DNA of 64,000 nt from an uncultured Gammaproteobacteria bacterium (lineage in GTDB: Bacteria; Patescibacteriota; Microgenomatia; Levybacterales; UBA12049), in NCBI GenBank assembly GCA_964483115.1, contig CAYZZF010000002.1, positions 5,493-69,492 on the forward strand, written 5' to 3'. The translations under genes and the position numbers were made by a program. Positions within the stretch are counted from its first letter, which is position 1. Each line of letters starts with the position of its first letter. Shown in pieces: positions 19,210-57,547 of this stretch. The notes below the pieces were generated by a model, which had not been told where the DNA came from, made no database searches, and worked only from the letters and a program-made list of their open reading frames with translations.

Positions 19210-19262
19210 CGTATAGCGTTTAGGGTATAGTTTAAACTAAATTCTAGACACTAACGAAGTAA

Positions 19263-30424: not shown

Positions 30425-30627
30425 AAAATTAGTTTAGCATAATTTTTCTTCTTCTTTTCTGTCAAGAAAAGAAGCAAAAGCTCTCACAAGTCTTGTCTTG
30501 TGCTCTCAAAGTTTCGTTCACACCTCCTCTGCAATATCACGCCCCCTTTTTTACGTATTCACTCAACTTCTCGTGCATTCGACATGCGGATTGGCGACTT
30601 TATATATAAATAAAAAAATTTTGGGGC

Positions 30628-30656
30628 TTGACAGAGATTAGCAGTCGTGTTATATT
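30628..30656 (+). promoter_or_regulatory. sigma70 consensus promoter of hrcA operon (TTGACA-17-TATATT)
   Basis: ttgaca at 30628-30633, a 17-nt spacer, and tatatt at 30651-30656. Confidence 0.7.
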
Positions 30657-30664
30657 ACTGCTAA
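30638..30664 (+). promoter_or_regulatory. CIRCE element (HrcA operator) overlapping the promoter
   Basis: TTAGCAGTC-N9-TACTGCTAA against the consensus TTAGCACTC-N9-GAGTGCTAA, with 8/9 inverted-repeat arms. It is followed by a second imperfect palindrome, aaccccgattaaatcgggatt. Confidence 0.75.
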
Positions 30665-30697
30665 TCCAACCCCGATTAAATCGGGATTGCAAACAAC

Positions 30698-30821
30698 AAA
30701 TTCCAAATTACAAATCTAAAGTAAATTCAAAATTTCAATATCGAAATGTTTTGAATTATGAAAATTTGAAATTAAGTATTATTTAGGATTTGCTGCTTTG
30801 AAATTGGAATTTTTAAGAAAT
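30698..30821 (+). repeat. dispersed repeat copy in the hrcA 5' leader (shared about 75-bp block with the rnj leader)
   Basis: The block tttgaaattaagtattatttaggatttgctgctttgaaattggaattttt closely matches 52288-52340 and the reverse complement of 56145-56200. Confidence 0.6.
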
Positions 30822-31553
30822 ATGTATAACTTAACGCAGAGACAAATTGAGATATTAAAAAGTCTTATAGAAGAATATATAGAAACTGCAGCTCCTGTAG
30901 GTTCTGAAACTTTAGAAAAAAAGTGTAGTATAAGCGCCTCCCCTGCAACTATAAGAAACGAGATGGTAAAACTTACGCAACTTGGTTACCTTCAAAAACC
31001 TCATTCTTCAGCCGGCCGTATGCCTACACCTTCGGGCATGAAATTCTATGTTAATCAACTCATGAAAGAGAAAGAGATTTCTGTGGCTGAGGAAGTAGAT
31101 GTTAGAGATAAGGTATGGGATTTTAGAAATCAGGAGCAAAAACTTTTAAAGGAATTAACAAGATCGCTTGCTGACAAAACAAAGACCTTGGCAATTACTT
31201 CAACCGATGAGGGTGATTTTTTTTGCGCAGGTTATTCTCACATCCTAGACATACCTGAGTTTTTTGATATAGATGTAACAAAAAATCTACTAAGCGTTCT
31301 TGATGAGTTTGACTACTTTAATAATATTTTTTCAAGTATAATTGATGAAGAAGATATCCACATACTTATAGGAGATGAACTTGGGCCAAAACTTAGAGGT
31401 CCATATGGATTTGTTTTTAGACATTACAATACTCCTAAACACTCAACTGGGGAGATTGGAGTAATCGGACCAAACAGACTTGACTATACTTCTGTAGTAC
31501 CAACTGTTCGATATTTTGGTGATTTAATTGAAGAGATTGCAGAAGGATGGTAA
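30822..31553 (+). CDS. hrcA: heat-inducible transcription repressor HrcA (short form)
   Basis: MYNLTQRQIEILKSLIEEYIETAAPVGSETL is an HrcA N-terminal winged HTH. The ATG at 30822 is preferred over the TTG at 30798, which lies inside the repeat. Confidence 0.8.
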   Translation: MYNLTQRQIEILKSLIEEYIETAAPVGSETLEKKCSISASPATIRNEMVKLTQLGYLQKPHSSAGRMPTPSGMKFYVNQLMKEKEISVAEEVDVRDKVWDFRNQEQKLLKELTRSLADKTKTLAITSTDEGDFFCAGYSHILDIPEFFDIDVTKNLLSVLDEFDYFNNIFSSIIDEEDIHILIGDELGPKLRGPYGFVFRHYNTPKHSTGEIGVIGPNRLDYTSVVPTVRYFGDLIEEIAEGW

Positions 31554-31603
31554 TTTAAAATAGAATATAAAATATAAAAATTAAAAAGGACTATTGAAGT
31601 GAG

Positions 31604-32044: not shown

Positions 32045-32065
32045 AAATTTGACTGAAAGGAGCAT

Positions 32066-33967: not shown

Positions 33968-33995
33968 TTCAAAATTCATAATTCAAAATTCAAAA
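33965..33995. repeat. intergenic copy of dispersed repeat (ttcaaaattcataattcaaaattcaaaatt)
   Basis: Its reverse complement is near-identical to the intragenic copy at 3598-3640. Confidence 0.6.
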
Positions 33996-33998
33996 TTG

Positions 33999-34022
33999 GC
34001 CGCGGAGACGCGGTTGTTTGTT
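33999..34022 (+). terminator. hairpin plus U-rich tract between dnaK and dnaJ (attenuating terminator)
   Basis: gccgcg-gaga-cgcggt stem-loop followed by ttgtttgtt. Confidence 0.45.
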
Positions 34023-34037
34023 ATAATATTGTAGCTT

Positions 34038-34934
34038 ATGGCAGAACAGAAAGATTTTTACGAAATTTTAGGCATTTCGAAAAATGCAACAGCCGATGAA
34101 ATAAAAAAGGCTTATAGAAAGCTTGCTCTTTCCTATCATCCTGATCGTAATAAGACTAAAGAAGCTGAGGAAAGATTTAAAGAGATAAATCAAGCTTACG
34201 AAGTTTTATCAGATTCAAAAAAAAGACAGGCTTATGACCAATTTGGGCAGACAGCTTTTACTCAAGGGTTTGGCCAGTCACCTTTTGGAGAAGGTTTTAG
34301 TGGACAGACAAGAACTGGGCGCTACGGACCGTTTACTTATACATACTCAGCTGGGCCGGGCGCTGATGAGGGCTTTGATTTTGGAGGATTTTCTGACCCA
34401 TTTGAAATATTTGAACAGTTTTTTGGTGGAGCTTCACCTTTTGGCTCACAAGCCCGCCAAAGACCAATTTACTCTCTAACAATTGAGTTCATGGAAGCAG
34501 TACATGGAACCACAAAAAAGGTAGTAATTGGTGGGAAAAATCAAACCATAAAAATTCCTAAAGGAGTTGACAATGGGTCAAGAATTCGTTTTGGTGAATA
34601 TGATGTAATTTTGGAGGTGCAACCAGACAGAAGATTTAGAAGAGAAGGTACAGACATAATTTCGGATGTTGAAGTTTCATTTACTAAGGCAGCTTTGGGA
34701 GATACGGTAACGGTTGAGACAATCGATGGACCAGTTAAGCTTCGTATCCCTGTCTCTACACAGCCGGGCACAGTTATACGTTTAAGACAAAAAGGAGTTC
34801 CTTATCTTCGAGGCTCAGGCAGAGGAGATCATTATGTGAGAATAAAAGTTATAATCCCTAAACATCTGACCAGCCACCAAAAAAAACTTCTTGAGGAACT
34901 TGAAAAAGAATCAACTAAAAAAAGCTGGTTTTAA
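34038..34934 (+). CDS. dnaJ: DnaJ-family co-chaperone lacking the Zn-finger domain (type II)
   Basis: J-domain (YHPDRNK) and a G/F-rich region; no CxxCxGxG repeats; C-terminal substrate-binding domains. Confidence 0.85.
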
Positions 34935-34981
34935 GAATTTTCTAATTGTGGTTTTTGAGCAAAATATGCTACGATTAGTAT

Positions 34982-35302
34982 ATGTTACTATCCGGAGTTT
35001 TAGGTGCTACTTCTTGCAGAGTGAATGAAAAACTAACCGATTTTGGGTGTATTCCTAATGACCCCGTTGCTTTTGTTGCCAAATTTTATGGTATTGGACT
35101 TGGATTAATTGGCGGTGTTGCGATACTTTTTATTATCTACGGAGGGTATATTATTCTTGCTTCCCAAGGTGATCCGGTAAAATTGAATACTGGTAAAAGT
35201 TATATATATTATGCGATTGCCGGACTTCTCCTGGCAATTTTTGGATTTGTTTTTGTTCAGGTGATTGTTGTTGACATATTGCACATACCTGGGTTTAAAT
35301 AA
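34982..35302 (+). CDS. small two-helix membrane protein (pilin-like; TrbC/VirB2-like topology)
   Basis: Two long hydrophobic helices (IGLGLIGGVAILFIIYGGYIIL and YIYYAIAGLLLAIFGFVFVQVIVV) separated by a short polar loop. Sits 6 bp upstream of the large membrane protein. Confidence 0.45.
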   Translation: MLLSGVLGATSCRVNEKLTDFGCIPNDPVAFVAKFYGIGLGLIGGVAILFIIYGGYIILASQGDPVKLNTGKSYIYYAIAGLLLAIFGFVFVQVIVVDILHIPGFK

Positions 35303-35308
35303 GAATAT

Positions 35309-37627
35309 ATGATAAAATTTCTGCCCATTCTGCGAAAGATTCTTTTTATTCTTATTGCATTTTTTGTAATAGGACTTTCGCTATTTAGTTTTACTGCAAT
35401 AGCAAAAGCACAGTCAGCCCCAACCCCAACTGGAGTACCTGAAGGTTCCTGGGTAAAAGATCAGGAGGTAACTTTTGTTGGTAAAACTGCTGCCCGGTCA
35501 GGAGAATTTTTAGATTGGACGCTAAAAAATTATGATTGGTCCTCTGTTTCGCCGGGGACAAGCAATCCACTTGCTACATTTTGGGCGACTATTAGAAATA
35601 TTGTTTATGCGTTTTTTATTCTTTTTGTTTTGGTAACAGCGTTTGTAATTATTGTTACTCGAGGAAGAAACATAACAGTGGCCAAATTCATACCCAAACT
35701 TATTATCATAATTCTTTTGGTAACATTTTCTTTTGCATTAGTTCAATTTATCTATCAAGTTACAGATGCAATACAAGGCTTTTTCTTAAAGAGCCCATCT
35801 CCTGATTGTACTTCCATTTGTCAAAAAGATCTCTTTTACTGGGGTTGGAATTATCAAGATTTTGAAGGTTTCCGTTTTATTGATCAAGCCGGTACTTATG
35901 ATGAATCAGCTTTTATAGCTCTTCTCCTTGTTAGACTTACCGCTCTTACCTATTATGTTATGGTTGGAATACTTATACTTAGAAAAATAATACTTTGGTT
36001 TTTTATTATAATATCGCCCATATTTCCTCTTCTTCTTTTGTATTCCCCAATTAGAAATACCGCCAAAATCTGGGTCGGAGAGTTTTTTCGCTGGCTTTTA
36101 TATGCGCCTATATTTGCAATTTTTTTGTCCGGGCTAGTTGTAATCTGGCGCTCACAGACGAACATACCCTTACAGTTTAATCTTACAAATACAAAAGTTA
36201 TCTACCCAACTGCCATAAACATTCTTCTTGGAGGGCCCGGACAAGTATTATCATACGTTTCTCCCGCTCAATCAAATAGCGTAAACAACATTGACACTTT
36301 CGCCCTTTATGTAGTTGCGCTTCTTATGCTTTGGGTCGTTATAATTTTGCCGTTTCTTCTTCTTCAGATTTTTCTTGATTATCTTAACAATTTTTCATTC
36401 GGAGAAAGTGCTATTTTAAAACAGCTCATAGCTGGAGGATCAGCGTTTGTAAATAGAGCTGGTCCTGGACTAACTCCTCCGCCCCCTACGATTCCTGCTG
36501 GTATAGCCCGTGCTCTACCATTTATTCCAGGTAAGGTTGAGATACCCGAGATAAGAGCAACAGAGGCTATTATCAATGCACAAGTCGCAGATATGAGAGG
36601 AATACAGGCAAGTTCAGATATACTTCGTCTAGCTAGTCTAAGCGTTCCTACCATGCGTGATATCGCAAAATATGAAACTGCTCTTTTATCCTCAGACATA
36701 GGTAAGCATCAAGATATAGCAAGATTTCACGAAACATTAGAGGGAATTGCCAATCCAAAAAGGGTGGCAACACCTGCGGAAAGACAAAATTATAATCTTA
36801 TGCAGGGAAGACTAAAACGGGAAGCCCAAAGAGGGGATCCTCTGGCATCCTCCATATTATCCGCTGCCAGTATCGTTTCTAAATCTTCTTTACAAAATAA
36901 ACAAGAGGAAAATGCAAGAGTAGGCAGTATCCTTTCCAGGATGAATAATCTTGCTAGCATAATTTCAACTGAGGAGAAAGAAAGACTAAACGCAATAAAA
37001 TCGTCTCTTATAGAAGCTGCGCAGAAAGGGGATCCTCTGGCAAACTCTATTCTATCTGCGATGAAAGAAGGCAAGACAGAAATAGATGAGAAACTTAAAG
37101 AACAGCTGCTTGAAGCAAAAGAAAGAGGAAGCGCGCTAGCTGCATCAATTTTAGAACAAGCTGGTGTTTCTGTTACTGTACAGACGTTCCCTGTTACAAA
37201 TCGTGTGCAAGCAGTAAGTATAGATGATTACGAAGCGGTAAAGAAAGTCTGGCAAGAAAATTATCAGAAACTTGAGCCGCCAAGAACTATTGAAGGAAAA
37301 CAAAAAAACAGGGAAGAATGGATTATAGGAGACATAGATAGGATTACAGAAACTATTAATCTTCTTACATCGGAAGATGTTCAGAATATCAAAAAGGGCA
37401 TGGAAGAGGTTTCTGCAATACTCCCCTTCCTTCTTATAGGAGGGTTTGCTCAGACAGAAGTTATTGCCTATCTTAAAGCAAAACTTGAAGCTGCAAAATC
37501 AGTTTCCGAAGAAATCAGCAAAAAAGAAGAGGAAGAAGAAACTATGCTTGGAAGAGAGAAGGCTAAAACAGATAAGCCAGCGGAGATGGAAATGAAAGAA
37601 GAAGTTAAAGAAAACCAAAATAATTGA
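35309..37627 (+). CDS. large polytopic membrane protein with signal peptide and C-terminal cytoplasmic repeat/acidic domain; unknown function
   Basis: Signal-like N-terminus and about 8-10 TM helices. The C-terminal region carries a triple GDPLAxSILSA repeat and an EEEEE tail. Confidence 0.55.
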   Translation: MIKFLPILRKILFILIAFFVIGLSLFSFTAIAKAQSAPTPTGVPEGSWVKDQEVTFVGKTAARSGEFLDWTLKNYDWSSVSPGTSNPLATFWATIRNIVYAFFILFVLVTAFVIIVTRGRNITVAKFIPKLIIIILLVTFSFALVQFIYQVTDAIQGFFLKSPSPDCTSICQKDLFYWGWNYQDFEGFRFIDQAGTYDESAFIALLLVRLTALTYYVMVGILILRKIILWFFIIISPIFPLLLLYSPIRNTAKIWVGEFFRWLLYAPIFAIFLSGLVVIWRSQTNIPLQFNLTNTKVIYPTAINILLGGPGQVLSYVSPAQSNSVNNIDTFALYVVALLMLWVVIILPFLLLQIFLDYLNNFSFGESAILKQLIAGGSAFVNRAGPGLTPPPPTIPAGIARALPFIPGKVEIPEIRATEAIINAQVADMRGIQASSDILRLASLSVPTMRDIAKYETALLSSDIGKHQDIARFHETLEGIANPKRVATPAERQNYNLMQGRLKREAQRGDPLASSILSAASIVSKSSLQNKQEENARVGSILSRMNNLASIISTEEKERLNAIKSSLIEAAQKGDPLANSILSAMKEGKTEIDEKLKEQLLEAKERGSALAASILEQAGVSVTVQTFPVTNRVQAVSIDDYEAVKKVWQENYQKLEPPRTIEGKQKNREEWIIGDIDRITETINLLTSEDVQNIKKGMEEVSAILPFLLIGGFAQTEVIAYLKAKLEAAKSVSEEISKKEEEEETMLGREKAKTDKPAEMEMKEEVKENQNN

Positions 37628-37687
37628 TATTAAAAGTACCATCAGTGCTAAAATATATAAAAGGTAATGCTGTAAATAGATAGAAAT

Positions 37688-40243
37688 ATGTTTGGAAATT
37701 TATTCGGTTCAAGAAATTTTGAAGTAAAAACCGGGACTACTCAAGTTCCGCAGCAGGTGCCGGCATCTCCTTCTGTGCCGTCAGTCCAATCTGTCCAGCC
37801 TCTCCAATCTAATGTTGTCGGATCTGCCATGAACCCATCTTTAAGGCAGGATTTATCAGTGTTATCTCATTTAGACGCTAGAGCATCACAAGTATTACAA
37901 GCTGCTAAAAATGAAACAAAAAGAATTCAGCAATCACTTATTGAACCAGAGCAAATTCTCTACGGACTTTTATTTGACGGCGAAGTTTTCAAACTTATTT
38001 CACAATTTTCTTCAGACCCTACAAAGATCGTTAAGGAAATTGAAAGTAAAGAATCAGTCGGAAGTTTTATAGGAGAATCAACTCTGTCAGATACTTCAAA
38101 AAAGATCTTTGAAGATGCATATTCGATGGTAAAAAAAAGAGGAGTTGAGTTTATAAGTCCTGAAGATATTCTATTATCTCTCTTTTCACAAAGTGTAGGA
38201 GTCTCAAATTATCTTCAGTCAGAGGGAATTAAAAAAGAAGACATTGAAGAAAAACTTTCAAAGACATCAAGCTATGTCTATGGTAAAAAATCTGCACTTG
38301 AAAGTTTTGGTGTTGATTTGACAGAACAGGCGAGAAACGGGGAACTTGATCCAATTGCAGGACGAGATAAGGAAATTGAAAGACTTGTCCACATACTTCT
38401 TCGCAGAACCAAAAATAACCCTATTGTTATAGGAGAGGCAGGAGTTGGAAAAACAGCCATTGTTGAAGGATTAGCTCAAAATATCATAAAGGGCACTGCC
38501 CCCCGCGATCTTCTAGAAAAAAAAATTATCCAGATTGATTTATCCTCTCTTGTTGCGGGGGCATCGCACCGGGGGGAATTTGAGGAAAGACTCAGAAGCG
38601 TTATAAAAGAAACCCAAGCTGCAAGCGGAGCAGTAATATTATTCATTGATGAGATCCATACTTTGATTGGAGCAGGAGATACAGAAGGGGCTTTGGATGC
38701 ATCAAATATTATAAAGCCTTTTTTGGCAAGAGGACAACTCCAGATTATTGGAACAACAACGACTGCTGAATATAGAAAATATTTTGAAAAGGATAAAGCC
38801 TTTGAGAGAAGGTTTCAATCGGTTTTGGTTGCCGAACCCGATGAGAAAACAGCCGTTGAAATGCTTTTGGTTCTTAAAACAAAATACGAGAATTTTCATA
38901 AAGTTGTTCTGCCACAAGAGACTCTTGAGGCATCCGTTGCCCTATCAAAACGCTATATTGGCGAGCGGTATTTACCCGATAAGGCAGTTGATCTCCTGGA
39001 TGAGGCAGCAGCAGAAGTAAGGCTTTTGCAAAACGAAGGGAAGAGATCTGATAATACTGTTTCAAAAAGTGATATAGAAAAAGTTGTTTCAGGTTGGACA
39101 GGAATTCCTATAACAAAACTTACAGAAAATGAAAGCGAGAGACTTTTGCATCTTGAAGACACAATTCACAAGCGCTTAATCGATCAGGAAATGGCAGTTA
39201 AAACTGTTGCAGAAGCTGTAAGGCGAGGAAGGATCGGATTGTCAAGTGCCCAAAGGCCTATTGCATCATTTATATTCTTGGGACCAACCGGGGTTGGAAA
39301 AACAGAACTTGCAAAAACACTCGCTTCGATTCTCTTTGGCAAAGAGGAGGCAATGGTGAGACTTGATATGAGTGAGTATATGGAAAAACATGAGGTCGCA
39401 AAACTTATTGGCGCCCCTCCCGGTTATGTTGGTTATGAAGAAGGGGGTCAGTTAACAGAGGCAGTCAGGATAAAACCTTATTCTATAGTTCTTTTGGATG
39501 AGATAGAAAAAGCGCACCCGGATGTCTTTAATATTTTACTCCAGCTTCTTGAAGATGGAAGACTTACCGATAATAAGGGCAATACAGTATCTTTTAAGAA
39601 TACGATTATTATTGCAACATCAAATATCGGTAGTATGCTAATACAGCAGCAGTTGGAAACAGACAAAAAGGGAGGTTCGGAATTGCAGGAAAAAAGTGAT
39701 GCGAAAAAATTTGAGGAGCTTTCAAAGACCCTCCTTGCAGAACTTAGAAAATTCTTTAGACCCGAACTTTTGAACCGTTTTGATGGAGTTGTGATTTTTG
39801 AACCTTTATCTTTGAAAAACATGCTTTCTGTTGCCCAGCTTGGTATAGATGCAACTAAAAAATTGCTTAATCAACAGGGTATTGATCTTGATATTACACA
39901 AGAAGGGCTTTCTCAACTTGCTCGTGAAGGCTATGACCCGGTTTATGGAGCAAGACCGCTAAGGCGTCTTATTCAAAGCTCTATAGAAAATCCAATCGCT
40001 GTGCTTCTTATAAATAAAACTTTTATAGCAGGGGACAAGATTTTGATTGATTTTGATAAGATAAAAGAAGAGTTCATTTTTACAAAAGTTGCTCTGTCCC
40101 CAACCCAGCCAGGAACAACACAAGGCGAAACCCTGAATCCAGTTTCGGCAAATGACGGAAACTTTCCACCAGCACAACCTTTACAGCCGGAGGCACCACC
40201 AATACAGGGGATTGATGACACTCAAATGCAACCACAAAATTGA
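37688..40243 (+). CDS. clpB: ClpB/ClpC-family double-ring AAA+ chaperone lacking the M-domain, with disordered N- and C-terminal tails
   Basis: Clp_N repeats. D1 has GRDKEIERLVHILLRRTKNNPIVIGEAGVGKTA and Walker B FIDEIH. D2 has LGPTGVGKTELAK, LLDEIEKAHPDVFNILLQLLEDGRLTD and GARPLRRLIQ. Only about 9 residues separate DLLDEAAAEV from the D2 linker. There is no LGF ClpP loop. Confidence 0.85.
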   Translation: MFGNLFGSRNFEVKTGTTQVPQQVPASPSVPSVQSVQPLQSNVVGSAMNPSLRQDLSVLSHLDARASQVLQAAKNETKRIQQSLIEPEQILYGLLFDGEVFKLISQFSSDPTKIVKEIESKESVGSFIGESTLSDTSKKIFEDAYSMVKKRGVEFISPEDILLSLFSQSVGVSNYLQSEGIKKEDIEEKLSKTSSYVYGKKSALESFGVDLTEQARNGELDPIAGRDKEIERLVHILLRRTKNNPIVIGEAGVGKTAIVEGLAQNIIKGTAPRDLLEKKIIQIDLSSLVAGASHRGEFEERLRSVIKETQAASGAVILFIDEIHTLIGAGDTEGALDASNIIKPFLARGQLQIIGTTTTAEYRKYFEKDKAFERRFQSVLVAEPDEKTAVEMLLVLKTKYENFHKVVLPQETLEASVALSKRYIGERYLPDKAVDLLDEAAAEVRLLQNEGKRSDNTVSKSDIEKVVSGWTGIPITKLTENESERLLHLEDTIHKRLIDQEMAVKTVAEAVRRGRIGLSSAQRPIASFIFLGPTGVGKTELAKTLASILFGKEEAMVRLDMSEYMEKHEVAKLIGAPPGYVGYEEGGQLTEAVRIKPYSIVLLDEIEKAHPDVFNILLQLLEDGRLTDNKGNTVSFKNTIIIATSNIGSMLIQQQLETDKKGGSELQEKSDAKKFEELSKTLLAELRKFFRPELLNRFDGVVIFEPLSLKNMLSVAQLGIDATKKLLNQQGIDLDITQEGLSQLAREGYDPVYGARPLRRLIQSSIENPIAVLLINKTFIAGDKILIDFDKIKEEFIFTKVALSPTQPGTTQGETLNPVSANDGNFPPAQPLQPEAPPIQGIDDTQMQPQN

Positions 40244-40246
40244 TGT

Positions 40247-41845
40247 ATGAGCGATGGAAACATAAACCTCCTCCAGACAATTCCGGTTCAACACTTCAAT
40301 CCCCAAGACAAAAAGACCGCAATTTTTGGAACAAAAAAATTTATTTTCTCAGTTCTTTTTATAACTATTTTTGCAATCGCCTCTTTTATTTTCTTGGTAT
40401 CTTCAAAAAAACAATCTATGATATCACCCTCGGCTAATCCTTATCCCGCAAAATCTTTTAAAATGTGGGAGATTACATTTGTTTACGATACTGAAAAACA
40501 AACGCTCTCAGTTAAAAGTGCAATTATTAAGACTGGAACAGCAACTGCTTCCAATCTGGGACTGTCGCCATATAAACTTCTAGTTTTTAATAAAAATAAC
40601 AACGTTATTTTCAATACAGACATTCATATAACAGAAGGAATTCTCTATGATATTGATGGCCCGCCCAATGCTACTTCATCACCAATTATTGTTCCTTCTA
40701 CGCCCAAAACATTTGAAAACGTTGTTTATATCCCGTTATTTCAGAGTGCAAAAAAGATAGAGGTAACAAAAAATGGTATTAAGATATTGGAATTTACTCT
40801 CCCTAAAGTTACAGGATTTAATTTAATTAATCAAACATTTGCCGTAAATGGACCGGCTTGTACAACCAATCTAAAGATTGTATTTATTAGCGACGGATAC
40901 AACAGTGAAAGCCAGTTTTATAGCGATGCCCAAGAAGTGGTTAAAAAGTATATTTCTCTTTCTCCCTATTCTGAAAAGCCAGATATATTTGATTTTAAAA
41001 TGGTTTACAATACTATTCCTCTTGGTTGTGCTAAGAATGGTGTTCTATATACTGAGTGCTTGAGTTCTTTACAGACAATAATAATGGAAAAAAATATAAT
41101 TTTTGGAAAATATCCAGAACTTCAGGGAATTGATGGCGATCATTTAAAATTTATAGTTCTAGCAGATGCGCAACCTGAGCTATTTGGTGGATTGTTATAT
41201 ATGGGAGCTATGGAAGGCGTAGGCGGAGTTTATGGAGTCTTTGAAACGCGAGACCGCGATAAATTACCGACTGTTGCCTCCCACGAAGTATTAGGACATG
41301 CAGTAGGCTATCTATATGATAGATATGTGTATAGCTCAGGCCCAAATTCTCAGGAAAGAAGTGTTTTTCCAGAGAGCAACTGTAGTAGAAGTCAACAAGG
41401 AGCGTCCTTTTGGCAAAGCATTAATGGAGGAGGAGCATATCAAGGTTGTACATCTGAGTATTTGTTTGGACCTTACCCGCGTGATTGTGGGACAGGAGGA
41501 ACACGTGAGTCTATAATGAGTCTGGTAAGTTGTGGTTCAAGTGAATTTGATCCAGTCGAGCAAGCATGGATAAGAACTAATGTTATCTCAAAATACCAGT
41601 CTTGCAGTGGAAGCAGTCCATCCGCTTCTTTTCCGCCGACCTCGACTTCAATCCCCACTTTAGTTCCCAGGCAACCAACATCTATACAAGAGCCAGTTGT
41701 TACCCCAACCAGCACTTCCAGTGTTCCAACCACAGTTCCTACTTCAGCATCATTAACTACTTATGATTGCTATTCTGATCCAAACTGTCGTAATTCTGGC
41801 CAAGGGAATATTCAGCTATGCCCTCTTGTCTGCACTCCCAAATAA
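40247..41845 (+). CDS. membrane-anchored extracytoplasmic Cys-rich protein with HExxGH zinc-metallopeptidase motif (M64-like)
   Basis: N-in TM anchor; HEVLGHAVGYLYDRY; many Cys; C-terminal PT-rich region. Confidence 0.5.
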   Translation: MSDGNINLLQTIPVQHFNPQDKKTAIFGTKKFIFSVLFITIFAIASFIFLVSSKKQSMISPSANPYPAKSFKMWEITFVYDTEKQTLSVKSAIIKTGTATASNLGLSPYKLLVFNKNNNVIFNTDIHITEGILYDIDGPPNATSSPIIVPSTPKTFENVVYIPLFQSAKKIEVTKNGIKILEFTLPKVTGFNLINQTFAVNGPACTTNLKIVFISDGYNSESQFYSDAQEVVKKYISLSPYSEKPDIFDFKMVYNTIPLGCAKNGVLYTECLSSLQTIIMEKNIIFGKYPELQGIDGDHLKFIVLADAQPELFGGLLYMGAMEGVGGVYGVFETRDRDKLPTVASHEVLGHAVGYLYDRYVYSSGPNSQERSVFPESNCSRSQQGASFWQSINGGGAYQGCTSEYLFGPYPRDCGTGGTRESIMSLVSCGSSEFDPVEQAWIRTNVISKYQSCSGSSPSASFPPTSTSIPTLVPRQPTSIQEPVVTPTSTSSVPTTVPTSASLTTYDCYSDPNCRNSGQGNIQLCPLVCTPK

Positions 41846-45785: not shown

Positions 45786-45927
45786 ATTACAATACCAAGA
45801 TATCAAATTACAAATAAATTCAAATAATCAGGAAACAAAATCCAAAATTTATGTTTAAAACACTTGGAATTTCGGATTTAGGATTTGTTTGGAGTTTAGA
45901 TATTAGAGTTTGGAATCTTAATTTATT

Positions 45928-47447: not shown

Positions 47448-48434
47448 ATGGATAGAAGAACGTCTGAACAAATACGAGATTTACTGGAAGTTAGCAATAA
47501 GATTGGAATTGCAGTTGGCAAAAACTCAGGAATTGATGAATTAGCAGGGGCACTTGCGCTTTATCTGGCTCTTCTTGAAAGAGGCAAGAATGTATCAATT
47601 GCTTGCCCAACTGACCCTCTGGTTGAACATACTGTGCTTGTTGGGATTGATAGAGTAAAGAAAAATTTTGATGGTGCAACAGGAGATATGGTAGTTTCTT
47701 TTCCCTACAAAGAGGGCGATATAGAAAAAATCTCTTATACACTTGAGAATGGACTTTTAAATATTATAGTTAAGGGCGGAGAAGAAGGACTTTCATTTAA
47801 CGAGAATGATGTTATTTTTAAAAGGTCCGAGGGTAATCCAGAGCTTCTTTTTGTTGTAGGCACTTCGAAATTGTCTGATCTTGATAAAATATTTGATCCC
47901 CATGCTCTTAGAGATACTAAGGTTATCAATATAGATAATAAGCGCGATAATCAGGGATTTGGAGACATAGTTTTGGTTTCTTCTAATTTCTCATCGGTAT
48001 CCGAAGGAATTACAGATCTTTTAATACTTCTTGATATTTCAATAGATATTGATATAGCACAAAATCTTTTATTAGGAATAGAAAATGCTACGAATAACTT
48101 TCAAGGTCCCAATACGAGTCCGGTTGCTTTTGAGATGGCAGCTGCCCTTATGAAAAAAGGAGCCAGAAGAACAGGAACAAGTTTTAGAAGACAGCAATCG
48201 GTGCCGCTTGAAGAAGTTTCTTCTATTTTTTCTCCTAAAGATTCTAATATTCTTAGTCCAATTGACAAAGATGAGAAAAGAAATTCATCTTTAGATAAAC
48301 AGGCCACAAAAGATCTATCTGCCGCCCGCCTGCCGGGACAGGGCAGACCCGCTTCGCAGCGAGGTGAGCAACGTAAAAACCCTCCAGTTGATTGGCTAAC
48401 CCCAAAGATTTATAAAGGCTCAACAAATATTTAA
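47448..48434 (+). CDS. DHH/DHHA1-family (NrnA-like) protein with degenerate catalytic motifs and disordered tail
   Basis: Overall NrnA-like layout, but the DHH motif position reads IDNK and no GGGH motif is seen. In the infB operon it occupies the slot usually held by rbfA/truB. Confidence 0.45.
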   Translation: MDRRTSEQIRDLLEVSNKIGIAVGKNSGIDELAGALALYLALLERGKNVSIACPTDPLVEHTVLVGIDRVKKNFDGATGDMVVSFPYKEGDIEKISYTLENGLLNIIVKGGEEGLSFNENDVIFKRSEGNPELLFVVGTSKLSDLDKIFDPHALRDTKVINIDNKRDNQGFGDIVLVSSNFSSVSEGITDLLILLDISIDIDIAQNLLLGIENATNNFQGPNTSPVAFEMAAALMKKGARRTGTSFRRQQSVPLEEVSSIFSPKDSNILSPIDKDEKRNSSLDKQATKDLSAARLPGQGRPASQRGEQRKNPPVDWLTPKIYKGSTNI

Positions 48435-51131: not shown

Positions 51132-52199
51132 ATGGATTCTTTTACTTCTTTGGAAAGCCAGATACAAAAGCTTGAGGAAAAAGTTAAATCAATAGAGCTT
51201 CCTTCGGATTTGCTGGAAAAAATAGAAGGGATGATAAATTTGCTTCGAGCAAGTCTTAAAAGTGGAAATGCCTCATTTATAAATTATGAAAGTGTTTCAG
51301 CCTATGTTAATTGGATTGTCTCTTTGCCTTTTGCTAAAGAAACTAAAGATATTCTAGATCTTCATCGGGCAAAAGAGATTTTGGATAAAAATCATTACGG
51401 ACTTTCGGGTGTCAAAAATAGAATTCTGGAGTATTTATCGGCAATTATTTTAAGTATGCAAAACAACACATCAGGAGGAGTGATACGAGCACCGATCCTT
51501 TGCTTAATTGGTCTTGTTGGAACTGGTAAGACAACACTTGCTTACTCTATTGCAGAGGCTCTGGGACGGAGGTTTGAGAGAATACCTTTTGGAGGAATGG
51601 GAGATGCAAGGGCACTACGCGGTCAGTCTCGCGCAATGTCTGATGCAGAACCAGGAGCTATCATTAAAAAATTAGTTAATGCCCAAAGTAAAAATGCTGT
51701 TATTCTTCTTGATGAACTAGATAGAGTGGCAGAGTCTGCTAGAGCTGACATTATGGGAGTTTTGGTGGAGCTTTTGGACCCCGAACAAAATAAAGCATTT
51801 ACAGACCATTATATTGACTATCCATTTGATTTGTCTCATGTTTTGTTTGTTACAACAGCAAATAATTCAACTAACATCTCAACAGCAGTATTAGACAGAC
51901 TTGAGATAATACAAATGCCTTCTTATTCAGATGAGGAGAAAACGTCCATTGCAAGAAGTTATCTATTCCCGAAAATTCGTACTCAGACAGGATTATCAGA
52001 ACAACAAATACTTATTGATGATGCTGTTTGGCCTTTGGTAATAAGACCTTTAGGTTTTGACTCGGGAATAAGAAGCCTTGAGAGGACAATTGAGGGGATT
52101 TGCAGAAAAACCGCAAGGTTTATTGTCGAAGGAAAAGTGCCCCAGGGAGCATCTGTCCACATAACAAGCGAGAATTTTAAACAATTTTTACTAACCTAA
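51132..52199 (+). CDS. Lon-like AAA+ ATPase module without N-terminal LON domain and without S16 protease domain
   Basis: HYGLSGVKNRILEYL; LCLIGLVGTGKTTLAYSIAEALGRRF; LLDELDR; VELLDPEQNKAFTDHYIDYPFDLSHVLFVTTANN; SGIRSLERTIEGICRK. The ORF ends before any protease-domain sequence. Confidence 0.8.
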   Translation: MDSFTSLESQIQKLEEKVKSIELPSDLLEKIEGMINLLRASLKSGNASFINYESVSAYVNWIVSLPFAKETKDILDLHRAKEILDKNHYGLSGVKNRILEYLSAIILSMQNNTSGGVIRAPILCLIGLVGTGKTTLAYSIAEALGRRFERIPFGGMGDARALRGQSRAMSDAEPGAIIKKLVNAQSKNAVILLDELDRVAESARADIMGVLVELLDPEQNKAFTDHYIDYPFDLSHVLFVTTANNSTNISTAVLDRLEIIQMPSYSDEEKTSIARSYLFPKIRTQTGLSEQQILIDDAVWPLVIRPLGFDSGIRSLERTIEGICRKTARFIVEGKVPQGASVHITSENFKQFLLT

Positions 52200-52352
52200 T
52201 GAAAATCACAGACATCAAATCACTCGCTTCGCAACGAGGCAAGCAAATCACAAATAAATTAAAAGCTACAATATCAAAAAGTCTTGAATTTTGAAGATTT
52301 GAAATTAAGTATTATTTGAAATTTGCTGCTTTTGGTTTGAAATTTAGATTCT
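52200..52352 (+). repeat. dispersed repeat element in the rnj leader; left arm of an inverted-repeat pair
   Basis: The 39-bp core aaatcactcgcttcgcaacgaggcaagcaaatcacaaat (52217-52255) is an exact inverted match to 56229-56267. The block attatttgaaatttgctgcttt is shared with 30776-30800 and 56160-56185 (reverse complement). Confidence 0.75.
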
Positions 52353-54023
52353 ATGGATAATCAACTATCATTTATTCCCTTAGGGGGAGTTGGAGATGTT
52401 ACAAAAAACATGTATCTTTATGAATATAAAGATGAGATTTTAATTGTTGATTGCGGATTTGGGTTTGCAGATGAGACAATGCCTGGAGTAGATCTTCTAA
52501 TTCCAGATATTTCTTACCTTAAAAAAACCTGCCTGCCGGAAGGCAAGGCTAACAAAAAGATCATCGCTATGATTTTGACCCACGGACATGAGGATCACAT
52601 TGGTGCGATTCCTTATGTACTTGCGAACCTTCCTAAATTCCCAATATTTGGCTCGAAACTAACAGCCGCTCTTGCCAATGAGAAACTTAAGGAGTTTGGT
52701 ATAAAGAACAATGTTCAGACCATTAACTTTAATCAAATACTTAATTTGGGAAGTTTTCAAGTGTCTTTTATAAGAGTTACTCATTCAATAATTGATTCAG
52801 CCCATATTCTTATTAAGACACCGGTTGGTAATTTTTATCATGGTAGTGACTTTAAGTTTGATCTTACGCCAGTTGATGGAAAACCATCAGAGCTTTCAAA
52901 GATTGCTAAGGCAGGAGAAGAGGGCGTCGTCTGTCTTTTTTCTGATTGTTTAGGAGCAGAAAGACCAGGACATTCACCTTCTGAACGGGCAATAACCCAG
53001 AGTTTTGAAGAAGAATTTAAAAAGACCAAAGGTAAAATATTTGTAACCACATATTCTTCAAATATTTCAAGATTAAATCAGGCAATTGATGTGGGAATAA
53101 AGCTTGGTCGAAAAGTTTGCTTTGTGGGAAGATCTCTTCTTAAATCTCGCGATATCGGAAAGAGGCTTGCCTACATGAATTACCCATCTTCTTTGGAAAT
53201 TGCGCCGCAGGATGTAAAAAAAATGAATCCAGCGCAGGTTCTTGTGCTTGTTGCAGGAAGTCAAGGGCAGGAGGATTCAGCTCTTGTAAGAGTTGCAAAC
53301 GGAGAAGACAGAGATATTAGGATTGCAAAAGATGACGTTGTTATTTTTTCGGCCGATCCCATTCCTGGTAATGAAACTAGCATTAATTCTTTAATCGATA
53401 CAATAGCAAGACAGGGAGCAAAAGTGGTTTATTCAGAAATTACCGATGAATTTCATGTTTCGGGTCATGGTTCTCAAAATGATCTAAAACTTCTTATTGA
53501 TCTTGTCCGTCCCAAATTTCTTTTTCCAATCGGCGGAACATATAGACAAATGGTTGCATATCGATATTTAGCAAAAGAGCTGGGTTTTGGAGAAAGGGAA
53601 GTGATATTATCTGATGATGGGCAAGAAATAAAATTTGATAAAAATACAATATCACTTGGAAAGAAAATTTCGCTTTCAAATATATTTGTAGATGAATTAA
53701 CAGGAGAAGCAATCGAGAATTATGTAGTATTTGACAGGGTTAAGATTGCAAAAGAAGGACTTATCATTGTGATAGTCGAAATAGATTCAAACACCGGGCA
53801 TCTCGCTTCTTCTCCTGATATATTAACAAAAGGATTTAAATACGAAAACATAAAAAATTTGGCAAAAAGAGTTCAGAGAGCCCTTGAAGAATCTATTGGA
53901 AAAAGAAGAGAAAAAGTTATTAATTGGGTTTATTATAAAAAGATTGTAGAGCGGGTTACAGAGCAAATTCTTTTTAAAGAAGGTAGACAGCCTCTTATAG
54001 TACCGGTTATCCTTGAAGTATAG
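52353..54023 (+). CDS. rnj: ribonuclease J
   Basis: LGGVGDVTKNMYLYEY, THGHEDHIGAIPY (beta-lactamase HxHxDH), beta-CASP and C-terminal domain. Confidence 0.9.
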   Translation: MDNQLSFIPLGGVGDVTKNMYLYEYKDEILIVDCGFGFADETMPGVDLLIPDISYLKKTCLPEGKANKKIIAMILTHGHEDHIGAIPYVLANLPKFPIFGSKLTAALANEKLKEFGIKNNVQTINFNQILNLGSFQVSFIRVTHSIIDSAHILIKTPVGNFYHGSDFKFDLTPVDGKPSELSKIAKAGEEGVVCLFSDCLGAERPGHSPSERAITQSFEEEFKKTKGKIFVTTYSSNISRLNQAIDVGIKLGRKVCFVGRSLLKSRDIGKRLAYMNYPSSLEIAPQDVKKMNPAQVLVLVAGSQGQEDSALVRVANGEDRDIRIAKDDVVIFSADPIPGNETSINSLIDTIARQGAKVVYSEITDEFHVSGHGSQNDLKLLIDLVRPKFLFPIGGTYRQMVAYRYLAKELGFGEREVILSDDGQEIKFDKNTISLGKKISLSNIFVDELTGEAIENYVVFDRVKIAKEGLIIVIVEIDSNTGHLASSPDILTKGFKYENIKNLAKRVQRALEESIGKRREKVINWVYYKKIVERVTEQILFKEGRQPLIVPVILEV

Positions 54024-54040
54024 GTATATAATAAATTAGT

Positions 54041-56143
54041 ATGGCGAGAAGGCATTATAGAAGACGCAAGTTTAAGCTCAAACTTAAGAAAAGTACGGTT
54101 TATTCAATCTTTTCTTTTGGGCTAATTTTAATAGGTTTAATACTTCTTCTATCTTTTACCAAAAGTCAACCTTCATTTATTGTCTTGAGTAATCTTTTAC
54201 AAAAATATTTTGGTGCGGTTTCTTTTCTTTTGCCATTAGAGCTTATTTTTTTAGGATTTTTGTTTTTAAGACTTAAGTTTTTTTTGTCTCGTACCAACGT
54301 CTCGGTTGGTTTTTTCCTCCTTTTTTTATCTTTGGATGCTTTAATAAAAGGTGGAAAGTTTGGGGGATACCTTTTTAAGATATTGGCTGATATTCTTACA
54401 AATCTGGGAGCAAATATAGTTTATTTAGCAGGTGCATTTGTTGGTTTCATTGTTTTGTTTGATACTTCGATTGACGAGCTTTTGGATTTTTTCGTTTCTC
54501 TGTGGAAAATAATTTTGAAATTTTATCCAACCAAACTTCTCGCCTTTTTTAGAACAAAGAAAGCTACCGGCTTTAAAAATAGGCCAATAACCATAAGAGG
54601 AGGATTAAAAGAATCTCCAAGCTTAGCGAGTCGCGAGATAACAGTTGCCGCACAAGCTAAAAAAGACTCTATACTTCTTTCCGATAAGCTAGTTAGCAAT
54701 CCTTTAGCAACTGGAGTAGTGTGGGAGTATCCACCCTTATCTCTTCTTTCTGATTCATCGACGCAAAAGGCAGACAGAGGAGATATAAAAAGGGTAGCCA
54801 GTGTTATTGAAAATACGTTGCAGAGTTTTGGTATCGAAGCAAAAGTTGTTGAAGTAAATTTGGGTCCTGCTGTTACCCAATATGCACTTGAGATTGCTCT
54901 TGGAACAAAAGTTTCAAAAATTACTTCTCTTTCAAATGATTTAGCTCTTGCAACAGAAGCACCAACTGGACAGATAAGAATTGAGGCTCCTATTCCAGGA
55001 AGGAATTTGGTCGGGATAGAAATCCCCAATAGGAGTTTGGAAATTGTCGCACTTAAGACAATGCTTGAGTCAGATACAATGAGAAAAAGCAAGTCAAAGC
55101 TTACTGTGTCTTTGGGTCTTGATGTTTCGGGAAACCCCATTGTTGCTGATGTTAGTAGGATGCCCCATGTTTTGATTGCTGGAACAACGGGATCTGGAAA
55201 ATCAGTTCTTATAAATTCTTTCATAGCGTCTCTTTTATTTCGAGCCGCACCTTTTGAGGTAAAATTGATTCTTATTGATCCTAAAAGGGTAGAGCTTACC
55301 GGATACAATGGTATACCTCATCTTATGACACCTGTTATTGTTGAGATTGAAAAAATATTATCAGCTCTGAAGTGGGCAATGGATGAGATGGACCGACGTT
55401 ATAAAACCTTTGCCGAAAGAGGAGTTAGGAATATAGATGCTTATAATGAACTTTCAGGTTTTCAAGCCCTTCCTTATATTGTTATTCTAATAGACGAATT
55501 GGCAGACTTAATGGCATTTGCTCCGGTCGAGGTTGAAGATGCAATAGCCCGTCTTGCTCAGATGGCGCGTGCCACAGGAATTCATCTAGTTGTTTCCACT
55601 CAAAGACCATCAGTTGATGTTATAACAGGACTTATTAAAGCAAACATCCCTTGCCGTATTGCTTTTAATGTTTCATCAATGGTTGATTCAAGAGTTATAA
55701 TTGATATGCCAGGGTCTGAAAAACTTTTGGGCCGGGGCGATATGCTTTATATCCCGCCCGATCAAGCAAAACCAACCCGTATACAGGGAGCATATGTTTC
55801 GGACAGAGAAGTCAAAAAGTTGGTTGACTATCTCAAATCAAAAGGCCCGCCAGTTGAATACACAGAAGAGGTTACCTCAAAGCCGCTTGTGACCCGAGGA
55901 GGAGGATTTTTTGGAGCTGGGCGCGACCCACTTTTTGAAGAAGCAATAAGGATTGTTTGTCAACATGACAGAGCATCTGCATCTCTTCTTCAACGTAGGC
56001 TTTCAATCGGTTATTCAAGAGCTGCCCGGATTTTGGATCAGCTTGAAGAAGCAGAAATTGTAGGACACGCAGAAGGCTCAAAGCCGCGAGATGTGTTAAT
56101 TAGAAATGCAGAAGAACTAATAAGCAGCTTGCAGGAACAATAA
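54041..56143 (+). CDS. ftsK: DNA translocase FtsK/SpoIIIE
   Basis: N-terminal TM helices, PHVLIAGTTGSGKS, and a C-terminal gamma winged-helix. Confidence 0.9.
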   Translation: MARRHYRRRKFKLKLKKSTVYSIFSFGLILIGLILLLSFTKSQPSFIVLSNLLQKYFGAVSFLLPLELIFLGFLFLRLKFFLSRTNVSVGFFLLFLSLDALIKGGKFGGYLFKILADILTNLGANIVYLAGAFVGFIVLFDTSIDELLDFFVSLWKIILKFYPTKLLAFFRTKKATGFKNRPITIRGGLKESPSLASREITVAAQAKKDSILLSDKLVSNPLATGVVWEYPPLSLLSDSSTQKADRGDIKRVASVIENTLQSFGIEAKVVEVNLGPAVTQYALEIALGTKVSKITSLSNDLALATEAPTGQIRIEAPIPGRNLVGIEIPNRSLEIVALKTMLESDTMRKSKSKLTVSLGLDVSGNPIVADVSRMPHVLIAGTTGSGKSVLINSFIASLLFRAAPFEVKLILIDPKRVELTGYNGIPHLMTPVIVEIEKILSALKWAMDEMDRRYKTFAERGVRNIDAYNELSGFQALPYIVILIDELADLMAFAPVEVEDAIARLAQMARATGIHLVVSTQRPSVDVITGLIKANIPCRIAFNVSSMVDSRVIIDMPGSEKLLGRGDMLYIPPDQAKPTRIQGAYVSDREVKKLVDYLKSKGPPVEYTEEVTSKPLVTRGGGFFGAGRDPLFEEAIRIVCQHDRASASLLQRRLSIGYSRAARILDQLEEAEIVGHAEGSKPRDVLIRNAEELISSLQEQ

Positions 56144-56285
56144 AAATAAAATTCCAAATTCAAAGCAGCAAATTTCAAATAATAATTAAATTCAGATTTT
56201 TAAGATCTAAAACATTTGAATTTTGAATTTGTGATTTGCTTGCCTCGTTGCGAAGCGAGTGATTTTGGATTTGTAATTCAATGCT
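56144..56285 (-). repeat. dispersed repeat element, inverted copy (right arm of the inverted-repeat pair flanking rnj-ftsK)
   Basis: Reverse complement of the 39-bp core plus the ttatttgaaatttgctgctttgaatttggaatttt block. Confidence 0.75.
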
Positions 56286-56915
56286 ATGATAAGAGTTGGG
56301 CAAAGACTTGAGGAGGAACGTGTAAAAAAAAGGTTAACTCTTAAAGAGGTTTCGTCGGCAACAAAAATAAGAGTAGAATTTCTGCAAGCTCTAGAAAGAG
56401 GAGATTATAAAAGGCTTCCTTCTGCTTCCTATGCCCAAGGTTTTGTCAGAAACTATGCTAAATTTTTGGAAATGCCAGAGGAAGAGACACTTGCGCTATT
56501 TAGAAGAGAATTTGATGAAAAAAAAGAATTTAAAGTTTTGCCGGAAGGATTAATCGAGTCCTCTTTCCCTATTCGCCGATTTAAAATAAAACAAATAGTT
56601 TTATTGGTTATTCTAGTTTTTCTCTTGCTTTTTGGATATATAGTTTTCCAATACAGGTATGCTATATTCAGTCCTCCTCTTAATGTAGCAACCCCTCAGG
56701 AGACAGCAGAAATTTCCTCCCAGACATTAGATGTAAGCGGTACCACTGATCCTGCATCAACCATTTTTGTAGATGGTGAGCAGGTTTCAGTTAATAGTGA
56801 TGGGACTTTTAAAAAAGAAATAGTTGTTTTTCCTGGTAAAACAATAATTACAATAAAGGCAGTCAATAGATTTGGTAAGCAAACCATCATAAAGCGCCAT
56901 GTTGTGGTAAAATAA
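56286..56915 (+). CDS. rodZ: RodZ-like cytoskeleton protein (XRE-type HTH + TM + C-terminal domain)
   Basis: N-terminal HTH (LTLKEVSSATKIRVEFLQALERGDY), one TM, and a C-terminal beta-rich domain. Confidence 0.55.
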   Translation: MIRVGQRLEEERVKKRLTLKEVSSATKIRVEFLQALERGDYKRLPSASYAQGFVRNYAKFLEMPEEETLALFRREFDEKKEFKVLPEGLIESSFPIRRFKIKQIVLLVILVFLLLFGYIVFQYRYAIFSPPLNVATPQETAEISSQTLDVSGTTDPASTIFVDGEQVSVNSDGTFKKEIVVFPGKTIITIKAVNRFGKQTIIKRHVVVK

Positions 56916-56921
56916 CAAATT

Positions 56922-57420
56922 ATGAATTTACAGAAGTTAATTAAGTACGCAGAAAGCCCTGACAATTCGATAATCCGAACAGAGATTTGGAGAGATTTTG
57001 TCGGATGGAACAACCGGAGACGCGGAGAGAACGGGTTTTTACCAAACCAATTAAAAAATCATAATTTAAAGAAAGTTTTGGATGTAGCACTTGGCGATGG
57101 TGTCGGCAAGTTTTGCAGATATTACAAATAATCATATACTAATTCAGTATGAGCATAAACATGGCAAGAAAGTGTACTACTACGGCTATCCATTTAAAAA
57201 AGGAGAATTATTCTTTTAAAAGAGGCAGGAGTTTCAAGAATTGAGCAGTACAGCGATTATGAGCTGGGAGACAATCCCAATGCAGATTTTTATTGGTACG
57301 TCTCTGGGTTAAATAAAAACACTTTGTTACAACAATATTATAACGATTATAGTCTAAATCTTGTCTTTATCCATCAATCTTCTTTCTTAGGTTGTTAGCC
57401 TATTAACCTACTAGGTCTTT
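56922..57420 (+). pseudogene. decayed gene remnant (possible class I SAM methyltransferase)
   Basis: A 69-aa ORF carries KKVLDVALGDGVG (MTase motif I-like). Downstream frames give coding-like peptides (HKHGKKVYYYGYPFKKGELFF; LKEAGVSRIEQYSDYELGDNPNADFYWYVSGLNKN) broken by stops and frameshifts. Confidence 0.3.
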
Positions 57421-57547
57421 TGCGGATTGTTTGTTTATGATTGATCCCGCACCAATTAAATGTTTGAAAGACTGATATTTAAAGCTATAGTTTTACCGAT
57501 TGGCGCTGGGTTGACATTTAAAAATTCCAATGTTATCTTAATAAAGT

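Follow-up and report, generated by a model that had tools for sequence, protein, structure and literature searches.

The stretch of DNA analysed here, a 64-kb window with a G+C content of 35.5%, carries the genes for RNase J (rnj) and FtsK between the two members of an exact 39-bp inverted repeat. Each 39-mer is part of a longer, AT-rich intergenic element, a further copy of which lies in the 5' leader of hrcA. The named homologues of its RNase J and HrcA come from Candidatus Levybacteria / Patescibacteria. The two bracketed genes are flanked by a lon-like and a rodZ-like gene, all four on the + strand with short spacers, and they belong to a larger syntenic block consisting of nusA, infB, an unnamed gene, rpsO, pnp, lon-like, rnj, ftsK and rodZ-like. 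The genes that matter for what follows are:

51132..52199, + strand, Lon-like AAA ATPase gene, an open reading frame (ORF) whose orthologues have AAA and Lon_lid domains; left flank
52353..54023, + strand, rnj, RNase J (Pfam Lactamase_B, RNase_J_b_CASP and RNase_J_C)
54041..56143, + strand, ftsK (Pfam FtsK_alpha, FtsK_SpoIIIE and FtsK_gamma)
56286..56915, + strand, RodZ-like HTH_25 membrane protein gene, an ORF whose orthologues carry HTH_25; right flank
30822..31553, + strand, hrcA (Pfam HrcA)

The element copies and their anatomy

Two exact occurrences of the 39-mer, AAATCACTCGCTTCGCAACGAGGCAAGCAAATCACAAAT, are present in the window: 52217-52255 on the + strand and 56227-56265 on the - strand. 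No further match was found in the window when up to 3 mismatches were allowed, and the number expected by chance, estimated with 100 dinucleotide-preserving shuffles, was 0.00. The pair had been pointed out in a sequence-only reading of the window, together with the fact that it brackets rnj and ftsK (52353-54023 and 54041-56143). Both statements hold, except that the second interval had been placed 2 nt off, at 56229-56267. A second block, the 23-mer TATTATTTGAAATTTGCTGCTTT, is also exact in both spacers, at 52310-52332 (+) and 56162-56184 (-). It had been described as lying next to each 39-mer; the shared sequence is real, but the distance between the two blocks is 54 nt on the left side and 42 nt on the right side. 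Inverted matching extends well beyond the blocks, as 52204-52255 pairs with 56227-56278 (52 nt, 88%) and 52269-52354 with 56140-56225 (86 nt, 76%), so that both spacers are wholly involved. The lon-like/rnj and ftsK/rodZ-like spacers are mutual reverse complements over approximately 140 nt.

The same block family had been recognised in the leader of hrcA. This was borne out, 30711-30812 being 80% identical to 52244-52345, and the 23-mer is found there with 3 mismatches, at 30777-30799 (+). Three copies, named c52, c56 and c30, were delimited, the boundaries of c52 being set from the three-way alignment. They were scored with a three-copy nhmmer profile and with a covariance model, R1. Copies, blocks and hairpins are:

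52203..52343, + strand, copy c52, filling the lon-like/rnj spacer (E=1e-44; 173 bits with R1)
56152..56279, - strand, copy c56, filling the ftsK/rodZ-like spacer (E=5e-37; 138 bits with R1)
30684..30813, + strand, copy c30, within the hrcA 5' leader, without the 21-nt GC insert (E=3e-32; 123 bits with R1)
52217..52255, + strand, 39-mer, left arm of c52: heptad CAAATCA, 21-nt GC insert and CAAATCACAAAT; exact match
56227..56265, - strand, second copy of the 39-mer; exact match
52310..52332, + strand, 23-mer block, right arm of c52, whose partner is GCAAGCAAATCACAAATA of the left arm; exact in c52 and c56
56162..56184, - strand, second copy of the 23-mer block, beginning 18 nt past the ftsK stop codon
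52223..52238, no strand assigned, GC hairpin CTCGCT-TCGC-AACGAG, with a C·A mismatch on the + strand and better on the - strand
56244..56273, + strand, hairpin CUCGUU-GCGA-AGCGAG with a GNRA loop, then UGAUUUUGGAUUUG; a terminator-pattern match, terminator-like, downstream of ftsK
30671..30685, no strand assigned, small GC hairpin CCCGAT-TAA-ATCGGG at the left edge of c30, read from the sequence and unrelated to the c52/c56 core
30628..30664, + strand, hrcA promoter (TTGACA, 17 nt, TATATT) overlapping a CIRCE (controlling inverted repeat of chaperone expression) operator, TTAGCAGTC-N9-TACTGCTAA, conserved in the relatives L008, L009 and L010; context, outside the element

Copies c56 and c52 are identical at 112 of 135 aligned positions, and c30 is identical to c52 at 105 of 133 and to c56 at 102 of 128. 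With alignment z-scores of 17-29 relative to shuffles, the three copies are shown to be homologous. All other places in the window score E >= 0.003 against the profile. The copies are 128-141 bp long, two on the + strand and one on the - strand; c30 stands in direct orientation relative to c52, between the hrcA promoter and its CIRCE operator on one side and the hrcA start codon on the other.

All copies are imperfectly palindromic, with base pairing between a left arm, ...GCAAGCAAATCACAAATAAAT, and a right arm, ATTATTTGAAATTTGCTGC..., around a centre that makes another hairpin; fold-back pairing within each copy brings the left arm ...GCAAGCAAATCACAAAT onto the right arm ATTTGAAATTTGCTGC.... 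The two shared blocks of the sequence-only reading correspond to the left and right arms of a single element, which pair with each other. All three copies retain a consensus hairpin of 38 pairs, in which 90.8% of cells are paired, versus 27-50% when the partners were slid by 1-3 columns, and reverse-complement matches across copies reach z-scores of 6.6-8.6. Conservation is much stronger in the arms than in the centre. The outer ends of the element are not sharply delimited; arm pairing, that is, the inverted repeats, is present in all three copies.

The GC-rich core of the 39-mer had been singled out as the only GC-rich part, with stem potential of the gctt...aagc type. The first part is right: the core is a 21-nt insert, CTCGCTTCGCAACGAGGCAAG, between two CAAATCA heptads, and nothing else in the element is GC-rich. 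The best stem is however a different one, CTCGCT/AACGAG. At the position of the insert, c30 has three uninterrupted CAAATNN heptads. As RNA, the 39-mer folds with -7.5 kcal/mol on the + strand versus -10.3 on the complementary strand, and the better-folding strand reads CUCGUU-GCGA-AGCGAG, with a GNRA loop.

ORFs that overlap the copies are 31, 42 and 52 aa long, lie in frames that differ between copies and are absent from the protein collection. A small protein encoded by the element was rejected, owing to these differing frames and to the lack of a conserved ORF in either orientation. A promoter inside the element was rejected as well, no sigma-70-like site being usefully placed; the only match within a copy, at 56159-56186 (9/12), is within chance background.

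The same spacers in related genomes

The closest genomes available for comparison encode RNase J proteins 77-78% identical and HrcA proteins 80-84% identical to those of the window. The three spacers compare as follows:

lon-like/rnj spacer: window 153 nt; L005 6 nt, L015 20 nt, L004 70 nt (unrelated AT-rich), L014 125 nt (unrelated palindrome)
ftsK/rodZ-like spacer: window 142 nt; L005 15 nt, L015 43 nt, L004 66 nt
CIRCE to hrcA ATG: window 157 nt; L008 2 nt, L009 24 nt, L010 30 nt

None of the relatives examined has the element in its orthologous spacers, and no copy was found in approximately 115 kb of their DNA. Because the relatives' spacers are either tiny or filled with unrelated sequence, this comparison shows all three copies to be insertions specific to the Levybacteria lineage of the window, into spacers that were very short ancestrally. 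The order and orientation of lon-like, rnj, ftsK and rodZ-like are the same in L004, L005 and L015, and in L014 as far as the contig extends; judged from these genomes, the one-strand order is ancestral. Conserved synteny ruled out a composite transposon, as well as an imported or translocated cassette.

In L014, whose RNase J is 68% identical, the lon-like/rnj spacer (5876-6000) holds a 125-nt AT-rich palindrome unrelated to the element, with a self reverse-complement z of 3.3 and a fold of about -27 kcal/mol. Palindromic inserts hence recur at this spacer in separate lineages of the clade. The spacers on both sides of rnj-ftsK are also expanded in L004, to 70 nt (9931-10000) and 66 nt (13792-13857), and have the motif AATTTTCAATTTT(C/T)AATTT in common. 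We considered these two spacers as eroded copies of the element and rejected the idea, finding no significant similarity. Upstream of the hrcA promoter and CIRCE operator, L008, L009 and L010 carry simple (G)TTGAAA(G) tandem repeats.

Other sequences of similar appearance are present in the window. The nusA-infB spacer (45786-45927) is a 142-nt AT-rich sequence, CAAAT-rich in its left half and ATTTG-rich in its right half. It is conserved in L004 (3059-3203), with the right half only in L005 (3702-3795), and its match to the element profile is borderline (E 0.003-0.03); it could represent either an ancient leader of infB or a remote family member. An in-frame AT-rich palindrome, in which CAAATC-type repeats face TTTGA-type repeats, lies at 3553-3650 inside a DUF2298 membrane-protein gene (ORF 2397-4721, - strand), where it encodes the low-complexity loop ...NNRLDKKSKIKNQNYNSKFKNFNYHNFAICDLRFEI.... 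Its similarity to the family is weak (21.9 bits with R1, E ~0.02), and it is reminiscent of the Rickettsia palindromic elements, which are inserted in ORFs. A wider superfamily uniting the nusA-infB spacer, 3553-3634 and the L014 spacer was rejected: at borderline E values of 0.003-0.7 these sequences have a style in common, and homology is not demonstrable. Finally, 10260-10320, within an amine-oxidase ORF (9684-10958, - strand), and 20937-20963, after groEL, share a TTTGA-rich, 27-nt inverted match of 93%, which may be a low-complexity coincidence or another in-ORF repeat.

Past the rodZ-like gene, 632 nt (56916-57547) are devoid of any sizeable ORF. L005 has at that place a gene for a 260-aa S-adenosylmethionine-dependent methyltransferase, which is fragmented in L004. 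This gene appears to have decayed to a pseudogene in the lineage of the window.

Origin of the copies and of their exact arms

With moderate confidence, we read the 39-mer pair as belonging to an AT-rich intergenic repeat of about 130-150 bp, imperfectly palindromic, of which two copies stand in opposite orientation and share this arm as their best-conserved part. It would be a low-copy repeat of the kind represented by miniature inverted-repeat transposable elements (MITEs), by REPINs (doublets of repetitive extragenic palindromic, REP, sequences) and by enterobacterial repetitive intergenic consensus (ERIC) sequences, with its third copy in the hrcA leader. This reading is based on the fact that the element is short, non-coding, strictly intergenic and present in both orientations, that its arms are better kept than its centre, and that filled and empty sites are found between related genomes. 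Its size (<300-500 bp), its lack of coding sequence, its inverted repeats and these filled versus empty sites are all features of MITEs. The sequence-only reading had proposed MITE-like terminal inverted repeats, which is adequate in the broad sense; the 39-mers are however not the ends of a 3.9-kb unit, each being an arm of its own palindrome of ~140 bp.

Insertion of the copies is shown by the comparison of orthologous spacers, and we infer that a trans-acting enzyme mobilises them. The family would spread as a non-autonomous element, moved by an enzyme encoded elsewhere in the genome, and would land in AT-rich spacers. Two neighbouring, independent insertions would have taken place on either side of rnj-ftsK, making the bracketing incidental. 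Once inserted, the copies would be co-transcribed with the operon and would form local hairpins. In the orientation found between ftsK and rodZ, the GC hairpin and its U-rich tail, being on the mRNA strand, could partly terminate or stabilise the ftsK transcript. Any such regulatory effect would be a secondary by-product rather than a conserved regulatory design, because the relatives do without the element.

Several observations weigh against this interpretation. The sample consists of three copies within the 64-kb window. The exact block pattern, TATTATTTRRRATTTGCTGCTTT, gave no true copy in 185,579 representative genomes or in the Joint Genome Institute (JGI) metagenomes, where the only matches were unrelated (a Pseudomonadota locus near a csrA-like gene), and nothing relevant was returned from IMG/VR viral contigs for the core or for a relaxed block pattern. 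Neither a transposase, nor a REP-associated tyrosine transposase (RAYT, a Y1_Tnp-type protein), nor a recombinase, nor an autonomous element or transposase with matching ends was found within the window, as judged from Pfam scans of 30 of its ORFs and from annotation of the remaining ones via syntenic orthologues. No direct repeat that could be a target-site duplication is recognisable at the ends of the element, the relatives being too diverged for the pre-insertion sequence to be rebuilt. Fold energies are only modestly below those of shuffled sequences (z of -0.8 to -3.2). Two further points, taken up below, concern the uneven conservation of c52 and c56 and a non-transposon inverted copy elsewhere in the same genome.

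Between c52 and c56, the arms are exact over runs of 39 and 23 nt, and the remainder is 76% identical with a 12-nt indel. Under a uniform identity of 76%, the probability of an exact run of at least 39 nt is ~6e-4. A common age cannot account for exact arms beside a centre that is ~65% identical; either the arms are under selection, or gene conversion has taken place, or the AT-rich centre decays fast. A different explanation of the copies is that template switches during replication or repair copy sequence from 3-4 kb away, often inverted, into spacers. In such a process of templated copying rather than transposition, c52 and c56 would be copies of one another, their 39-mer and 23-mer having been made identical by short gene-conversion tracts.

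An inverted copy of this type does exist in the genome. At 19205-19240, the groES-groEL spacer repeats 36 nt of lepA coding sequence (15996-16031, 3.2 kb upstream) in inverted form, with 33/36 positions matching. The nearest relative, L016, lacks this patch and has an unrelated, AT-rich spacer of 44 nt. The example makes local copying or gene conversion a serious explanation of the exact blocks of c52 and c56, which are themselves inverted, 4.0 kb apart and part of an otherwise 76%-identical pair; the absence of a transposase from the window also fits. The 21-nt GC insert has a weak match of its own 3.9 kb upstream: the coding sequence ACCCGCTTCGCAGCGAGGTGAGCAA at 48347-48371, within ORF 47448-48434, shares 21 of 25 positions with the 39-mer's GC core, which is near chance as 1 of 40 shuffled queries did equally well, and is a possible source of the insert. 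However, c30 is 21 kb off and in direct orientation, and is as close to c52 (105/133) as c56 is outside the exact blocks. The palindromic architecture common to three copies is not what is expected from the copying of arbitrary sequence, and the conserved blocks coincide with the pairing arms and not with arbitrary tracts. We regard templated copying as possible for the copies as a whole, though doubtful. As to the patch itself, the lepA and groES-groEL mRNAs would be complementary there on one strand; it reads as a lineage-specific templated insertion, or possibly an antisense site.

The conservation of the arms could also reflect selection on a cis-acting RNA hairpin that, in the mRNA, would control the stability, processing or translation of rnj, hrcA and rodZ-like, and that may act as a terminator after ftsK. 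Here the arms would be far better kept than the centre, as observed, and c52 and c30 have the same orientation, with the 23-mer block 19-22 nt before the start codon. The fold of c56 on the + strand reaches -34.7 kcal/mol (z = -3.2), with a GNRA-capped hairpin followed by a U-rich tail; the five other folds give z values of -0.8 to -2.7 only. Four pairs of the consensus hairpin carry compensatory changes, but with three sequences this is not significant, the observed value being reached in 57 of 500 shuffles. We rejected the balance of G·U against A·C as a gauge of strand-specific RNA selection, since it draws on too few cells and on a structure optimised on one strand.

A search with the Rfam 15 covariance models gave no match at the gathering threshold in the window, and at E <= 1 over 30-57 kb the sole match was a chance miRNA family outside the element; no tRNA was found. 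A scan for terminators returned 6 matches versus 4.8 expected from shuffles, which as a whole is not above chance. The pattern is weakly present at c56 (a 6-bp stem including a G·U pair, a GCGA loop, then UGAUUUUGG), and a GC hairpin with a U tract is absent from the sense strand at c52 and c30. Moreover, the copies are transcribed in opposite orientations, such that a G·U pair on one strand becomes an A·C mismatch on the other, and an element missing from all orthologous spacers in the relatives is hence no conserved regulator. A selected hairpin thus seems unlikely to us. The shared post-transcriptional element put forward by the sequence-only reading is, as a conserved mechanism, not sustained by these same observations.

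Two proposals give a role to the inverted arrangement of c52 and c56. The first is a long-range RNA duplex. On a single lon-like/rnj/ftsK/rodZ-like transcript, the two copies could pair with each other, in part as a perfect 39-bp helix, and serve as an RNase III stalk, as in rRNA operons, releasing an rnj-ftsK mRNA. The four genes are on one strand with short spacers, and the predicted energy of the duplex is -129.5 kcal/mol, versus -62.8 for the two local folds, with -70 kcal/mol for the 39-mer helix alone. A duplex would also explain why the exact blocks are in precisely these two inverted copies. On the other hand, each copy could form its local fold well ahead of the transcription of its partner 4 kb downstream, pairing would be hindered by translation of rnj-ftsK, the arrangement is absent from the relatives, and the argument is purely thermodynamic. 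We consider such a duplex very improbable.

The second is an invertible DNA segment, also raised in the sequence-only reading, in which rnj-ftsK would be flipped by recombination, site-specific or homologous, acting on the repeats. Exact inverted repeats of 39 and 23 bp within ~140 bp of ~80% inverted homology would be suitable substrates. An independent assembly was examined: the Logan contig L001 corresponds to window positions 52226-56256 and confirms the interior sequence, its ends falling k-1 = 30 nt inside each 39-mer because the de Bruijn graph breaks at the exact inverted repeat. This fits either orientation of the segment; a break at an exact repeat longer than k is nevertheless expected with or without inversion. 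No recombinase or invertase, adjacent or enclosed, is encoded in the 64 kb. The two genes are housekeeping genes in the ancestral orientation, as seen in L004, L005 and L015, and flipping would set them against the flow of the operon. This leaves inversion with hardly any likelihood, the lowest that we assign to any of these explanations.

Another Logan contig reads straight through c30, which indicates that c30 has no near-identical twin in that sample. Contig L011 (SRR5161795) differs from window 30500-41553 at 3 of 11,054 positions; the window and SRR5161795 therefore stem from one population, with a slight difference of strain or assembly. Contig L012 extends 1.6 kb past the window.

Both proposals can be joined in a bolder one, which we rate as very unlikely too: that the two inverted copies are not incidental, forming a ~140-nt duplex as an RNase III stalk or, equivalently, allowing reversible DNA inversion. 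The exact arms would then be selected, and a bacterium of the candidate phyla radiation (CPR) would have co-opted a mobile palindromic repeat to control how an RNase gene is expressed.

Likeness to known repeats and switches

Small, compact genomes are the rule in CPR/Patescibacteria, and repeats are generally considered scarce in them. A lineage-specific palindromic repeat that expands spacers of 2-20 nt to ~150 nt in core operons (heat-shock, RNA-decay and division) shows that non-coding DNA is still being acquired by such genomes. The element and the inverted patch derived from lepA together point to a process that fills spacers with hairpin-forming sequence. On the practical side, exact 39-bp inverted repeats break short-read assembly graphs and could cause orientation errors in metagenome-assembled genomes. 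Established ideas are unchanged, and the finding is of modest interest. No published description of MITE- or REPIN-like elements in CPR/Patescibacteria was found in the literature.

Among known systems, invertible segments such as the Hin/Gin/Fim-type switches and the shufflons are flanked by short inverted repeats and hold a promoter or variable gene ends. The rnj-ftsK segment resembles them in being bounded by short inverted repeats, and differs in having no adjacent recombinase and in carrying housekeeping genes in their ancestral orientation. RNase III processing stalks flank the 16S and 23S genes in rRNA operons. Like them, c52 and c56 are inverted repeats several kb apart on one transcript, able to pair into a long helix; unlike them, they represent a thermodynamic possibility only, enclose translated genes and are not conserved in relatives.

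Closer in kind are the bacterial MITEs. The Correia elements of Neisseria and the RUP and BOX elements of Streptococcus pneumoniae can supply neighbouring transcripts with terminators, promoters or RNase III sites. The present element is likewise short and non-coding, has inverted ends and is inserted beside genes. Correia elements have 26-bp terminal inverted repeats and a TA target duplication, whereas the ends and duplication of our element are not definable, and it contains no promoter-like site. The ERIC sequences, or intergenic repeat units (IRU), of enterobacteria are imperfect palindromes of ~127 bp in transcribed intergenic regions. They are like the element in size, in imperfect palindromy, in occurring within operons in either orientation, in being present or absent between related genomes, and in giving mRNA hairpins by co-transcription; they differ by the absence of sequence similarity and by a very distant host phylum.

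REPINs are REP doublets that form hairpins and are mobilised by RAYT transposases (PMC3116915, PMC3337134). The element has the same plan: two conserved inverted arms around a less-conserved spacer, a unit of ~100-150 nt, non-coding, intergenic and hairpin-forming. However, the arms of REPINs are GC-rich REP sequences with a GTAG-like 5' tetranucleotide, present in high copy number, whereas those of the element are AT-rich (CAAATNN heptads), with no GTAG at the foot of the hairpin; the element has 3 known copies and a GC hairpin on one arm only. REPINs are accompanied by a RAYT, a Y1 transposase flanked by repeats, which the window lacks for the element, and they have been described mainly from Pseudomonas and enterobacteria, not from CPR. 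By sequence and by covariance model, the element corresponds to no described family. Its kind, that of small palindromic dispersed repeats, is familiar.

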